From a virus, in IMG/VR virus record IMGVR_UViG_3300026097_000805, positions 96,001 to 160,000 of that record: DNA of 64,000 nucleotides, one strand, 5' to 3'. The position numbers and the translations under genes were made by a program. Positions 19,932 through 22,563 of the stretch are shown here, one piece after another (position 1 is the stretch's first letter; every line of letters begins with the position of its first letter). The notes beneath the pieces were generated by a model. That model made no database searches, had not been told where the DNA came from, and worked only from the letters and a program-made list of their open reading frames with translations.

Positions 19932-20007
19932 TGGTGCTAGAGGACGGAATCGAACCGCCGACACGAGAATCTTCAATACCCTGCTCTACCGACTGAGCTA
20001 CTCTAGC
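19932..20007 (-). tRNA. trnF: tRNA-Phe(GAA)
   Basis: Cloverleaf, loop TTGAAGA, TTCGA T-loop, encoded CCA. Confidence 0.92.
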
Positions 20008-20011
20008 ATTA

Positions 20012-20082
20012 TGGTAGTAAATGATAGAATCGAACTATCTCTTCAGGCTTATGAGACCCGAGTCCGGACCACCGGATTTACT
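20012..20082 (-). tRNA. tRNA with CAT anticodon (Met or Ile2), shortened D-arm
   Basis: AGTAAAT/ATTTACT acceptor, loop CTCATAA, T-arm GATAG-TTCGATT-CTATC, CCA; only 71 nt. Confidence 0.75.
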
Positions 20083-20083
20083 A

Positions 20084-20166
20084 TGGAGTGCAAGACAGGA
20101 CTCGAACCTGCATAGTCTTACGACACGGATTTGCAATCCGATGCATAACCATTCTGCCACTTGCAC
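20084..20166 (-). tRNA. trnC: tRNA-Cys(GCA) with long variable arm
   Basis: Loop TTGCAAA, U73 discriminator, extra arm GTC-GTAA-GAC, CCA. Confidence 0.88.
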
Positions 20167-20167
20167 A

Positions 20168-20243
20168 TGGCTGGGGCGGAAGGACTCGAACCTCCAATCG
20201 ACAGAATCAAAATCTGTTGCATTACCAATTATGCTACACCCCA
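20168..20243 (-). tRNA. trnQ: tRNA-Gln(TTG)
   Basis: Cloverleaf, loop TTTTGAT, CCA. Confidence 0.93.
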
Positions 20244-20248
20244 AAACT

Positions 20249-20324
20249 TGGTGGACTCGCTCGGATTCGAACCGAGGACCAATTGATTAAAAGTCAACTG
20301 CTCTACCAACTGAGCTACGAGTCC
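20249..20324 (-). tRNA. trnK: tRNA-Lys(TTT)
   Basis: Cloverleaf, loop CTTTTAA, CCA. Confidence 0.95.
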
Positions 20325-20325
20325 A

Positions 20326-20409
20326 TGGTGGGGAAGGTAGGATTCGAACCTACTCACTTTACGAACTGATTTACAGTCAGCCGCGCCTCTCCAACTGCGC
20401 CGCTTCCCC
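20326..20409 (-). tRNA. trnY: tRNA-Tyr(GTA)
   Basis: Loop CTGTAAA, long variable arm, CCA. Confidence 0.93.
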
Positions 20410-20410
20410 A

Positions 20411-20486
20411 TGGTGTCAAAGGATGGACTTGAACCATCGACCTAACGGTTATCAGCCGTTTGCTCTACCAACTGAGCTACATTGAC
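20411..20486 (-). tRNA. trnI: tRNA-Ile(GAT)
   Basis: Cloverleaf, loop CTGATAA, CCA. Confidence 0.95.
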
Positions 20487-20491
20487 AAACT

Positions 20492-20565
20492 TGGCACCGG
20501 TCCAGGGAATCGAACCCCGAGTTTCAGTTTTGGAGACTGACGTGTTGCCATTACACTAGACCGAT
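20492..20565 (-). tRNA. trnW: tRNA-Trp(CCA)
   Basis: Cloverleaf, loop CTCCAAA, CCA. Confidence 0.92.
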
Positions 20566-20586
20566 ATAAAACTTTTTCCTCCTACT

Positions 20587-20626
20587 AAAAATAAAAAACC
20601 CCTGCTAATATCTCTACTAGCAGGGG
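20587..20626 (-). terminator. Intrinsic terminator of attenuator A (upstream of the Trp...Phe array)
   Basis: CCCCTGCTAG-N8-TTAGCAGGGG stem followed by TTTTTTATTTTT. Confidence 0.9.
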
Positions 20627-20651
20627 TGCGTTAAATAACTTTTCTTGACTA

Positions 20652-20729
20652 CTATGTCAAAAGCACACTCCTGCCTTCGCTAAACCAGCGAATGCAATAT
20701 TGTTGAATATGTTTCATCATTGTAGTCAT
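20652..20729 (-). CDS. Leader peptide A (25 aa, MTTMMKHIQQYCIRWFSEGRSVLLT)
   Basis: Translated by hand; lies between a promoter and a terminator, ends TAG TAG, and includes the antiterminator 5' strand. Confidence 0.8.
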   Translation of the reverse strand: MTTMMKHIQQYCIRWFSEGRSVLLT

Positions 20730-20766
20730 TTCTATTTCTCTTTGTTTAATTTCTTAGTATGTGTAT

Positions 20767-20795
20767 ACTATACACGTTTATTTATCTTCTGTCAA
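20767..20795 (-). promoter_or_regulatory. Sigma70-type promoter for leader A with nested ATAAATA motif
   Basis: TTGACA-N17-TATAGT; GATAAATA within the spacer (20779-20786). Confidence 0.8.
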
Positions 20796-20810
20796 CCGTT
20801 TATTTTACTT

Positions 20811-20834
20811 TTTGACAATTTAGATACAATATTT
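20811..20834. repeat. 24-nt inverted repeat, downstream arm
   Basis: TTTGACAATTTAGATACAATATTT, exact reverse complement of 22211-22234. Confidence 0.95.
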
Positions 20835-20838
20835 TAAA

Positions 20839-20913
20839 TGGTACACCGTAGGGGAATCGAACCCCTCTTTCCTGCGTGAAAGGCAAGCGTCCTAACCGAT
20901 AGACGAACGGTGC
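20839..20913 (-). tRNA. trnE: tRNA-Glu(TTC)
   Basis: Cloverleaf, loop CTTTCAC, CCA. Confidence 0.94.
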
Positions 20914-20918
20914 ATATA

Positions 20919-20995
20919 TGGCGGAACCGACGAGACTCGAACTCGCGACATCCTGCGTGACAGGCAGGCACTCTAACCAACTGAGCTACGGCTCC
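20919..20995 (-). tRNA. trnD: tRNA-Asp(GTC)
   Basis: Cloverleaf, loop CTGTCAC, CCA. Confidence 0.95.
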
Positions 20996-21001
20996 AATAA
21001 T

Positions 21002-21094
21002 TGGCGGTGAGGGTGGGATTTGAACCCACGGAACGCTATTAACGTTCGTCTGTTTTCAAGACAGGTGCAATAAGCCGGACTCTGCCACCTCACC
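21002..21094 (-). tRNA. trnS: tRNA-Ser(TGA)
   Basis: Loop CTTGAAA, long variable arm, G73, CCA. Confidence 0.93.
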
Positions 21095-21101
21095 AATAAA
21101 T

Positions 21102-21397
21102 TGGCAGCCCGTTAGCCACACACCGTTGGAATGATGCTTGTGACCCCTACACTGTAATAGCCCTGCTGTCTAGTTTATCAGTCTAGGGCACAAACTATTG
21201 TTTAGGTATAGGACTTTTGCTTCTCACTAAAGACCGCCACGGACCAACGGACGGCACTCTTTAGAACTAACACTAATGCAAAGAGCAAGTGGTTAACCAA
21301 TGCATCGACCTAGTTACTTGATAGACTATATCATATCTTTCGCTACTATCGGGCGGTTCAGGCCCTTATCGCCGTCTCTTTCGAGCTAGTGTGTAGT
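21102..21397 (-). ncRNA. Unidentified ~296-nt structured RNA inside the tRNA array
   Basis: Occupies a tRNA-like slot, ends GCCA, has no T-arm; many hairpins and long-range pairings (see findings). Confidence 0.65.
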
Positions 21398-21473
21398 TGG
21401 TAGCGGGAGCAGGAATCGAACCTACCTCAGTCCGGCTTATGAGACCAGTGAGTTCCCAGAACTCTATCCCGCA
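21398..21473 (-). tRNA. trnM: tRNA-Met(CAT), initiator-like
   Basis: Loop CTCATAA; 1:72 mismatch (T:T) and GCGGGA acceptor resemble fMet tRNA, although the anticodon stem lacks three consecutive G-C pairs. Confidence 0.85.
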
Positions 21474-21476
21474 ACT

Positions 21477-21550
21477 TGGAGCGGATACCGAGAATCGAAC
21501 TCGGACGATCACGTTGGCAACGTGAGAGGCTACCTTTACATCATATCCGC
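21477..21550 (-). tRNA. trnG: tRNA-Gly(GCC)
   Basis: Loop TTGCCAA, U73, CCA. Confidence 0.92.
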
Positions 21551-21554
21551 AATA

Positions 21555-21630
21555 TGGTGGAGATACGCGGGATCGAACCGCGGACCTGAAGCTTGCAAAG
21601 CTACTGCTCTCCCATCTGAGCTATATCCCC
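21555..21630 (-). tRNA. trnA: tRNA-Ala(TGC)
   Basis: Loop TTTGCAA, G3:U70, CCA. Confidence 0.95.
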
Positions 21631-21635
21631 ATTAA

Positions 21636-21712
21636 TGGTCTCGGTAGATGGATTCGAACCACCGACCCTCTGGTCCCAAACCAGATGCGCTACCAGACTG
21701 CGCTATACCGAG
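21636..21712 (-). tRNA. trnP: tRNA-Pro(TGG)
   Basis: Loop TTTGGGA, CCA. Confidence 0.94.
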
Positions 21713-21719
21713 TTTAATA

Positions 21720-21802
21720 TGGTGCCCTGGGGGAGACTCGAACTCCCACTCCGAAGAACTGGTACCTAAAACCAGCGTGTCTACCAATTCCACCACCAGG
21801 GC
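21720..21802 (-). tRNA. trnL: tRNA-Leu(TAG)
   Basis: Loop TTTAGGT, variable arm, CCA. Confidence 0.93.
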
Positions 21803-21808
21803 AATTTA

Positions 21809-21883
21809 TGGTGCTGATGGAGAGAATCGAACTCCCAATCTACGCATTACAAGTGCGTTGCCTTACCATTCGGCCACATCAGC
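21809..21883 (-). tRNA. trnT: tRNA-Thr(TGT)
   Basis: Loop CTTGTAA, CCA. Confidence 0.94.
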
Positions 21884-21889
21884 AATATT

Positions 21890-21964
21890 TGGAGCGGGTG
21901 GACGGGATCGAACCGACGACACCTGACTTGGAAGGACAGTGCTCTACCACTGAGCTACACCCGC
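21890..21964 (-). tRNA. trnG: tRNA-Gly(TCC)
   Basis: Loop CTTCCAA, U73, CCA. Confidence 0.93.
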
Positions 21965-21968
21965 AATA

Positions 21969-22057
21969 TGGCGGAGCGACTGGGAGTCGAACCCAGTGAA
22001 CGCGGTTAGCGTTCTACGGATTAGCAATCCGCTGCATTACCATCCTGCCCCCGCTCC
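21969..22057 (-). tRNA. trnS: tRNA-Ser(GCT)
   Basis: Loop TTGCTAA, long variable arm, CCA. Confidence 0.93.
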
Positions 22058-22066
22058 GTATGTGTT

Positions 22067-22122
22067 TGGCTCTACCCTCCCCTCTGGGCGATTTAACTAA
22101 CGAGGCATCTTGCGTTAGTACC
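22067..22122 (-). other. 56-nt non-tRNA unit ending in GCCA
   Basis: Lies between tRNA-Asn and tRNA-Ser; ACTAACG/CGTTAGT stem; no T-arm. Confidence 0.4.
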
Positions 22123-22127
22123 ATGTT

Positions 22128-22202
22128 TGGCTCCCGGTGTTGGAATCGAACCAACCAATGACGGATTAACAGTCCGCTCCCCCACCTTGGGGGCAACCGG
22201 GA
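22128..22202 (-). tRNA. trnN: tRNA-Asn(GTT)
   Basis: Loop CTGTTAA, CCCC/GGGG D-stem, CCA. Confidence 0.9.
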
Positions 22203-22210
22203 ATAAACCT

Positions 22211-22234
22211 AAATATTGTATCTAAATTGTCAAA
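22211..22234. repeat. 24-nt inverted repeat, upstream arm
   Basis: Exact reverse complement of 20811-20834. Confidence 0.95.
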
Positions 22235-22261
22235 GAGCGTGTAGCAAGTTCTTCTTGCTAC
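22228..22261 (-). promoter_or_regulatory. rrn-like boxB hairpin plus boxA
   Basis: GTAGCAAG-AAGAA-CTTGCTAC hairpin, then GCTCTTTGACA (boxA consensus TGCTCTTTAACA-like). Confidence 0.7.
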
Positions 22262-22272
22262 GTTATGTATAT

Positions 22273-22301
22273 ACTATACTACTTTATTCTGTGCCTGTCA
22301 A
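22273..22301 (-). promoter_or_regulatory. Sigma70-type promoter directly upstream of the Asn...Glu array
   Basis: TTGACA-N17-TATAGT. Confidence 0.8.
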
Positions 22302-22321
22302 CTACTATTTTGCCTTAAACC

Positions 22322-22360
22322 AAAAAAAAACCTTCCTTGCTGTGTGCTTGGAAGGTTTTT
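22322..22360 (-). terminator. Intrinsic terminator of attenuator B
   Basis: AAAAACCTTCC-N13-GGAAGG followed by T9. Confidence 0.9.
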
Positions 22361-22384
22361 GGAATCTTGTTAGCTAATGCTCGC

Positions 22385-22474
22385 TTACGTTCCGCAACCC
22401 TCCAGGCATAGACTACCCGCTGGATTTTCCGATCCAGGTGTCCATGTATCTAATGTGAGTACGAATGTAAACAT
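22385..22474 (-). CDS. Leader peptide B (29 aa, MFTFVLTLDTWTPGSENPAGSLCLEGCGT)
   Basis: Translated by hand; AAGGA SD, GATAAATA motif upstream, includes the antiterminator 5' strand. Confidence 0.8.
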   Translation of the reverse strand: MFTFVLTLDTWTPGSENPAGSLCLEGCGT

Positions 22475-22563
22475 TGAAAGTTTTTTCCTTATTAACTATG
22501 CATTTATTTATCATCTAGATAAAAAACACGCACATATTGGCTTATTTTTGGAACTTTGCTGTG

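Follow-up and report, generated by a model that had tools for sequence, protein, structure and literature searches.

Why phages carry tRNA genes, and how those genes are controlled, is an open question. It is raised directly by a 64,000-nt stretch (hereafter the window) which comprises bases 96001–160000 of a single 179,647-bp uncultured phage record from IMG/VR. The window contains 20 tRNA genes, all on the minus strand and, as the preliminary description had stated, divided between two arrays. Array 1 (22202→20839) holds 12 genes in the order Asn, Ser(gct), Gly(tcc), Thr, Leu(tag), Pro, Ala, Gly(gcc), Met and, beyond a 303-nt spacer, Ser(tga), Asp and Glu; this spacer and another of 70 nt interrupt the run. 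Array 2 (20565→19932) holds the remaining eight: Trp, Ile, Tyr, Lys, Gln, Cys, Met and Phe. Ahead of each array lies a unit composed of a short open reading frame (ORF) and an intrinsic terminator, in which the codons of the ORF correspond to the tRNAs encoded downstream. We propose that these units are probably two paralogous leader-peptide transcription attenuators, each of which would act as a multi-input sensor of decoding capacity for the array that follows it. Elements of both units lie on the minus strand, and coordinates are positions in the window unless a relative is named.

The unit preceding array 2 has the order promoter, ORF, terminator and tRNA genes, in agreement with the earlier account. 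A consensus sigma-70-type promoter, P_B (20767..20795; TTGACA-17-TATAGT), contains within its spacer a copy of the promoter-like motif GATAAATA (20786–20779), and is retained in six relatives of the phage (L006, L061, L069, L079, L080 and L088; a query with the phosphoesterase encoded beside the arrays gave a graded series of IMG/VR contigs, L006 among them, and further relatives came from the pattern scans described below). Leader ORF 2 (20652..20729) has 25 codons and a stop, encodes MTTMMKHIQQYCIRWFSEGRSVLLT and is preceded by an AAGAG ribosome-binding site (RBS); in both leaders the RBS is placed 8–10 nt ahead of the ATG. Codons 18–22 contain a candidate antiterminator strand, AGGCAGGAGUGUGC (20663..20676), which we call segment 2. 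Its target and intrinsic terminator 2 together occupy 20586..20630, with the target at 20630–20619, a 13-bp stem at 20627–20598 and a U-run. This terminator is strong and one-directional, and the ~33 nt that separate it from tRNA-Trp contain no promoter.

The unit preceding array 1 is built from the same parts in a different order. A GATAAATA motif (22505..22512) is located ~30 nt upstream of the ORF within the conserved sequence GATGATAAATAA, and is kept in all 11 distinct relatives; no sigma-70-type promoter was found in the region upstream of the ORF, which carries this motif only. Leader ORF 1 (22385..22474) comprises 29 codons and a stop, encoding MFTFVLTLDTWTPGSENPAGSLCLEGCGT, with an AAGGAAA RBS, and its segment 2 is UGCCUGGAGGGUUG (22395..22408) in codons 23–27. 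Intrinsic terminator 1 (22322..22360) has a stem at 22356–22330 (ACCUUCC...GGAAGGU) followed by a run of nine U to 22322. Between this terminator and array 1 there is a second consensus sigma-70-type promoter, P_A (22273..22301; TTGACA-17-TATAGT), then a small hairpin, a conserved 27-nt element (22237–22211) and the first tRNA gene. The unit is thus ordered ORF, terminator, promoter, tRNAs, and not promoter, leader, terminator, array as had been described. P_A is also present in L061 and at 12 metagenome loci, these 12 having been retrieved with a pattern drawn from P_A itself. With P_A in this position, control of array 1 cannot rest on leader 1 alone.

The correspondence between codons and tRNAs was scored under strict wobble rules (G34 reads C/U; U34 reads A/G; C34 reads G; A34 reads U/C/A). 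Every one of the 12 array-1 tRNAs, down to the two isoacceptors each of Ser and Gly, has a cognate codon in leader 1, where 20/29 codons fall in the set read by the array. Leader 2 does likewise for all eight array-2 tRNAs, and in its best 13-codon stretch 11 codons are in the set, which reproduces the core count given in the preliminary description; the 13/14 given there for the leader 1 core holds if U34 is allowed to read CCU and becomes 12/14 by strict wobble. Jointly the two leaders use all 20 amino acids, again as described. Each leader is the single most extreme of the 702 ATG-initiated ORFs of 20–40 codons across the genome. In a random-codon simulation the joint probability of full coverage and window enrichment is 7e-5 for leader 1 and ~1e-4 for leader 2, and when the ORF itself is shuffled with its dinucleotides preserved, as a control for local composition, the P values are 4e-5 and 2.3e-4, respectively. 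Each leader is, additionally, depleted for the codons of the other array (P = 0.8–0.9 of being as high). In a blind ranking of 41 short ORFs found upstream of tRNA runs in all fetched loci, members of this family took the top seven places, and every short ORF non-homologous to both leaders had P > 0.017. The codon match is real and far beyond chance, and we consider it very probable that the link between codons and tRNAs is functional.

The leaders also contain codons for His, Arg and Val, for which the window has no tRNA gene, as the preliminary description had noted; none is present in the whole genome either. It had been suggested that these tRNAs were lost from the arrays or lie elsewhere, and the relatives contain them where the leaders place them. 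L006 (89% identity) carries 24 tRNAs in the same order with Val(tac) added to array 1 and Arg(acg) and His(gtg) added to array 2, and the three tRNAs are found in the predicted arrays of L006, L061 and L069. Scored against the ten-tRNA content of the relatives (Arg(acg) and His(gtg) added), the leader 2 core MMKHIQQYCIRWF has 13/13 consecutive codons in the set and covers 10/10 tRNAs (P below 2.5e-6 to 2e-5). Leader 2 is nearly identical in L006 and L060/L061 despite differing promoters, 5' untranslated regions and tRNA genes.

More diverged homologues were recovered by a metagenome scan with the P_A sequence, which yielded 12 genuine loci. All 12 carry a leader 1 homologue with the GATGATAAATAA motif, an RBS and a terminator. 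Across 11 distinct relatives the frame remains open at 28–31 codons behind an AAGGAAA RBS, with three different C-terminal ends, and the commonest type (e.g. MKLTLTSVEYSTLGSSNPGADVCGVCES) is ~40% identical to the peptide of the window. The leader 1 of L061 (MKLVLTSVEYSTVGSSNPGADACGVCKS, likewise ~40% identical) covers 12/12 of its own array-1 tRNAs called by ARAGORN (P = 2e-5), and that of L069 covers 14/14, tRNA-Tyr included (P below 3e-6). The peptide has thus been free to diverge, and its array has remained covered. The leader 2 ORF is open in eight distinct relatives, and in-frame indels are tolerated in the leader family. A whole-region homology search in cultured phages returned tRNA-level matches only, a degenerate leader 1 peptide pattern had no match in viral contigs, and tRNA-based patterns retrieved from viral contigs only the two relatives already known.

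A structural pattern derived from leader 2 identified more distant members of the family, in which codon and tRNA content can be compared. The leaders of L079 (beginning MTTQQKHMQKHICIRWF) and L088 (beginning MTTMMKQIKQHCIRWF) are each followed by the run Trp, Ile, Lys, Gln, Cys, Met, Arg, His, Phe; that of L080 (beginning MTTMMTHIQQICIRWF) by Trp, Cys, Met, Phe; and that of L092 (beginning MNTQKMHNMFYCIRLW) by Tyr, Trp, Cys, Arg, His, Phe. In 8/8 variants, leader 2 has a Tyr codon if, and only if, a tRNA-Tyr lies downstream. Codon and gene are both present in the window, L006, L092 and L061, where the gene is a divergent Tyr-like one called by neither ARAGORN nor Infernal, and both are absent from L069, L079, L080 and L088, with Infernal finding no tRNA-Tyr in the downstream runs of the last three. 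Among the leader 2 variants the codon has been replaced in three different ways. In L069 tRNA-Tyr is instead located in array 1, and the leader 1 of this relative carries TAT. Similarly, the Lys codon of L080 is gone together with tRNA-Lys. The co-variation of leader codons with array content expected from the preliminary description is thus seen for Tyr and for Lys, within an imperfect overall match.

L005, from a related phage, was considered as a further leader. A promoter and an ORF of 34 codons precede a terminator and tRNAs there (1653–1853), and the ORF uses 18 different amino acids (MMNKTMYMIIKPKNQPTVAGSFCGWYNDRHGGSV); only 14/34 codons are in the set of the small array that follows, which is suggestive at most. 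It may be a third leader family or the relic of a larger array.

The RNA of each unit is predicted to allow the alternative structures of an attenuator. In the predicted folds the two halves of each ORF pair into a long imperfect hairpin, which adjoins the terminator, with fold z-scores of -7.2 for unit 2 and -3.6 for unit 1. Minimum-free-energy folds pair the two halves of the ORF in all variants despite their sequence differences, giving the equivalent of a 1:2 hairpin; in the unbound fold of leader 2, segment 2 pairs with codons 6–12. Segment 2, which spans the last five to seven codons, can pair alternatively with the 5' arm of the terminator. This helix is mutually exclusive with the terminator, and segment 2 lies where a ribosome at the stop codon would cover it. 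In all variants segment 2 begins at a fixed position of the ORF (codon 22–23 in leader 1), and the codons matching the array lie upstream of it in every variant, where a stalled ribosome would leave segment 2 free.

The strength of the candidate antiterminator varies between subtypes, most variants falling in the range -15 to -23 kcal/mol. For leader 1 the duplex in the window has a predicted energy of -15.6 to -19.5 kcal/mol, equalled by 2/1000 and 8/2000 shuffles, and that of L068 has 12 perfect pairs and -20.0 kcal/mol, equalled by 0/2000. The duplex in L063 and L075 (-15.4 kcal/mol) is matched by 14/1000 and 6/1000 shuffles, or by 22/2000 and 35/2000 in another run, and in the commonest subtype (L069, L074) the value is about -11 kcal/mol, which 18–26% of shuffles reach and which is not significant. 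For leader 2 the duplex with 20630–20619 in the window reaches -18.4 kcal/mol (62/2000 shuffles as good), that of L088 -19.4 kcal/mol (8/2000) and that of L092 -23.4 kcal/mol (1/2000). Segment 2 changes along with the terminator, of which there are three types, and cognate combinations are mostly better than non-cognate ones; the terminator 1 stem itself co-varies in L068 (ACCCUCC/GGAGGGU). In the leader 2 alignment the antiterminator pairs in 91% of cells versus 31–62% in slid controls, and two pairs change on both sides, one of them by a compensatory G-C to A-U replacement in L088 which lies outside the terminator stem. The leader 1 sequences were analysed one by one because the two subtypes are too different for in-register alignment; from a mixed leader 1 alignment RNAalifold retrieved no more than the terminator and the inner hairpin of the ORF. 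An Rfam search of the window matched no known RNA family to the leader units, and the T-box covariance model gave no match at gathering or E<=1 thresholds. Terminator 2 gave a weak PyrG-leader match (31.5 bits, threshold 65), which we took as chance.

Taken together, these features would be explained by the following model. Each unit has a GATAAATA phage promoter motif, and a ribosome would initiate at the Shine–Dalgarno sequence of the 25–29 codon ORF. The first two thirds of the ORF would serve as an inventory, with about one codon per tRNA species of the downstream array, and the last third as segment 2, which could pair either with segment 1, made up of the first half of the ORF, or with the terminator 5' arm. 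If all inventory codons were read fast, the ribosome would reach the stop codon and cover segment 2, the terminator would form and transcription would end before the tRNAs. If any one of these codons were slow owing to a scarce tRNA, the stalled ribosome would hold segment 1, segment 2 would pair with the terminator 5' arm and polymerase would read through. The array tRNAs would relieve the stall, and the circuit would therefore exert negative feedback on tRNA supply. All transcription of array 2 would have to pass the leader 2 gate. For array 1, leader 1 would only add a regulated input of read-through from upstream, because the unconditional promoter P_A follows terminator 1; this input would plausibly operate while GATAAATA promoters are active. 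The anatomy, the codon match with its conservation and co-variation, and the complementarity of the alternative helices are observed; that the ORFs are translated, that ribosomes stall on them and that polymerase reads through are steps which we infer from sequence. Control of tRNA arrays by peptide attenuators was the central proposal of the preliminary description, and it gains from the codon coverage in relatives, the Tyr co-variation and the conserved antiterminator pairing, and loses on the layout of unit 1.

Several observations weigh against attenuation of this kind. Leader 1 is not needed for expression of array 1, given the position of P_A. The antiterminator is no better than shuffles in the commonest leader 1 subtype, and codons 20–22 of leader 1 adjoin segment 2, so that a ribosome stalled there would probably mask it. 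Equilibrium folds in which the ribosome footprint is forced unpaired still form the terminator. Since the terminator wins at equilibrium, the switch in these leaders would have to be kinetic, as the trp attenuation switch is; thermodynamics by itself speaks neither for nor against such a switch. The fit of codons to tRNAs also has gaps: L080 retains codons for His, Ile, Gln and Arg although it lacks the four tRNAs, L092 retains codons for Met, Lys and Gln, whose tRNAs lie upstream of its leader, and the inserted Arg(tct) of L063 is unrepresented in the L063 leader. Such lags between leader codons and tRNA content are expected, yet they limit the claim. Furthermore, the relatives are phylogenetically non-independent, and the second array of G002 (Met, Arg, Leu) has a promoter and no leader.

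The alternative that survives best is that the codon inventory is functional, with an output other than trp-type read-through, namely control of precursor processing or stability, or of Rho access, by the speed at which the short ORF is translated, or an action of the terminated leader RNA or its peptide in trans; we regard this as unlikely. A precedent is described for the Sinorhizobium trp attenuator, with its RNA rnTrpL and peptide peTrpL. Trans-acting attenuator RNAs are reported in the alphaproteobacteria (bioRxiv 10.1101/606483), to which the probable host of the phage (see below) belongs. The terminated product would be a compact, strongly folded two-hairpin RNA which resembles a stable small RNA (sRNA; z = -7.2 for unit 2), leader 1 is split from array 1 by an independent promoter, and the antiterminator is weak in some subtypes. 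On the other hand, the complementarity between segment 2 and the terminator is kept over three terminator types and through a compensatory change, none of which a pure trans role needs, and array 2 depends on passing its terminator.

A second alternative, which is quite improbable, holds that the ORFs are ordinary small phage genes, or that the units are non-coding sRNAs with an incidental frame, the tRNAs being expressed by leaky termination and from P_A and the codon match arising from composition or general codon optimisation. Leader 1 does have the motif, RBS and spacing typical of GATAAATA-driven genes, a consensus promoter follows its terminator, and the peptide carries conserved Cys pairs (CGVCES, CLEGCGT). 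A RiPP precursor or small protein was considered for leader 1 under this alternative. Composition does not account for the match, as the composition-controlled dinucleotide shuffles show. General codon optimisation would not divide the codons according to the downstream array, nor would it make the Tyr codon track tRNA-Tyr, and the peptide diverges freely under constant array coverage. Chance combined with post-hoc selection is hardly credible: the core windows were picked after the sequence had been viewed, and initially only two ORFs in one genome were concerned, but the statistics use whole-ORF coverage besides windows, the pattern recurs in diverged homologues and in the blind ranking, the lost tRNAs were found as predicted, and the Tyr and Lys changes contradict shared ancestry alone.

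Beyond the two units, attenuation by the leaders may reflect a more general design. We lean slightly towards the view that it represents a widespread, undescribed circuit in phages with large arrays, in which each array would regulate itself through a leader that lists its own tRNAs, with up to 14 inputs and an 'any one missing' logic, and in which leader codons and array content would co-evolve. The circuit would be switched on by falling decoding capacity, whether through codon-usage mismatch, host shut-off or tRNA-cleaving nucleases. The link to host anticodon nucleases drawn in the preliminary description is possible, and simple homeostasis in a host with mismatched codon usage would explain the design equally well. 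If the model is true, tRNA supply would be measured at the ribosome and corrected by feedback, and the units would provide a compact natural sensor of 'any tRNA limiting' for synthetic biology. A leader of this type also allows the former tRNAs of an array to be deduced, and here it correctly predicted the lost Val, Arg and His tRNAs.

The genome has 16 minus-strand copies of the GATAAATA motif and a single plus-strand copy. Of the 16, 14 copies (for example at 9989, 1027 and 16106 in the window) are intergenic in a genome which is only 7% intergenic, and copies are located 3–78 nt (mostly 19–31 nt) ahead of gene starts, including those of virion structural and tail-fibre-like genes. It resembles the T4-type late promoter, TATAAATA, and is a candidate phage-specific, T4-late-like promoter, which would be used late if the resemblance extends to timing. 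The genome (G+C 38.6%) also contains ~25 consensus sigma-70 promoters (TTGACA-N16-18-TATAnT) which face in the same direction as the tRNA genes. Besides the 20 tRNA genes, the minus strand of the window encodes a permuted, two-piece, alpha-type tmRNA (58692–59076) with the tag ANDNYAPETALAA; the tmRNA and the tRNAs together suggest that the phage invests in the rescue of stalled ribosomes. For the metallophosphoesterase (19327–19866), a single flanking protein, the nearest cultured phages are the Sinorhizobium phages phiM12 and phiN3 (55% identity). Because the tmRNA is of the alpha type and the nearest cultured relatives are Sinorhizobium phages, the host is suggested to be alphaproteobacterial.

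The 27-nt element downstream of P_A is one arm of an inverted repeat on the minus strand. The 5' arm (22211..22237) is 96% complementary to the 3' arm (20808..20834), which is situated beyond the end of array 1 and before unit 2, so that the two enclose array 1. L061 holds the same pair, in which the distal sequence has changed and still matches. In a transcript from P_A the repeat would form a long-range duplex around array 1, much like the stalks at which RNase III processes rRNA operon transcripts; alternatively, it may be a site for protein binding.

The 303-nt spacer of array 1 (21095–21397, minus strand), between tRNA-Met and tRNA-Ser(tga), is richer in G+C and matches nothing in Rfam. 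On visual inspection, a motif in its first ~110 nt (GACGGCGATAAG ... GGTCGA..CATTGG) seems to recur in a spacer of 115 nt between tRNA genes of L006 (786–901); blastn found no match between the two spacers. One possibility is that tRNA arrays carry a hitherto undescribed small RNA here. L006 has, in addition, a GOLLD RNA inside its tRNA array (~2040–3090; Rfam match 2413–2872, 185.9 bits, threshold 150), which has a tRNA-like element embedded in it and its own consensus promoter in front, and the window is without a GOLLD RNA. At 300–614 of L006 an ORF for an HNH-type endonuclease abuts tRNA-Asn beside a duplicated tRNA 5' fragment, and tRNA-like debris lies ahead of tRNA-Asn in L061 (4940–5110); homing-endonuclease insertions appear to remodel the arrays. 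In L064 (oriented; 1148–1330 after P_A) the gene immediately after the array-1 tRNA-Ser(tga) is tRNA-Trp, with Val, Asp, Glu and leader 2 all missing, and the two arrays can therefore be fused.

A literature search found no account of leader-peptide control of tRNA genes, although most subscription journals were outside the search and absence from it is not proof. The tRNA region of phage T5 (NC_005859) likewise has small ORFs, multiple consensus promoters and stable RNAs between its tRNA genes. The same inventory test applied to this region gave no convincing leader inventory; the best cases were an ORF of 55 aa, rich in K/V, ahead of Lys-Val and one of 42 aa, rich in Cys, ahead of Cys, and neither is separated from its tRNA by an annotated terminator. 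T-box riboswitches resemble the phage units in choosing between terminator and antiterminator in response to tRNA through a codon-like specifier, but they bind uncharged tRNA without a ribosome, have conserved specifier and T-box motifs and sense one tRNA. Closer in kind is E. coli pheST, where the pheM leader is likewise a leader-peptide attenuator of a component of the translation apparatus and responds to the decoding of cognate codons; Phe is its only input, and it governs an aminoacyl-tRNA synthetase instead of tRNA genes.

The closest architectural parallel is with the amino-acid operon attenuators of enterobacteria, among them trpL, hisL, leuL and pheL and the multivalent leaders of ilvGMEDA (Ile/Leu/Val) and thr (Thr/Ile). 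Like these attenuators, the phage units combine a short leader ORF enriched in regulatory codons with predicted equivalents of the 1:2 hairpin, the 2:3 antiterminator and the 3:4 intrinsic terminator; the regulatory codons lie upstream of segment 2 and, as in ilv and thr, more than one amino acid is represented. Unlike all of these, the phage units precede tRNA genes and not biosynthetic enzymes, and in place of runs of a single amino acid they have about one codon for each of 8–14 tRNA species, at the resolution of isoacceptors. They would sense the supply of tRNA and not of amino acids, with the product itself, a tRNA, relieving the stall, and they are phage-encoded, paired and paralogous, dividing the code between two arrays. 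If our reading is correct, classical attenuation would be extended from one to three amino acids to 8–14 inputs, and from enzymes to tRNA genes. The class of mechanism is classical; the tRNA-gene target, the inventory of one codon per tRNA and the pairing of the modules are new.

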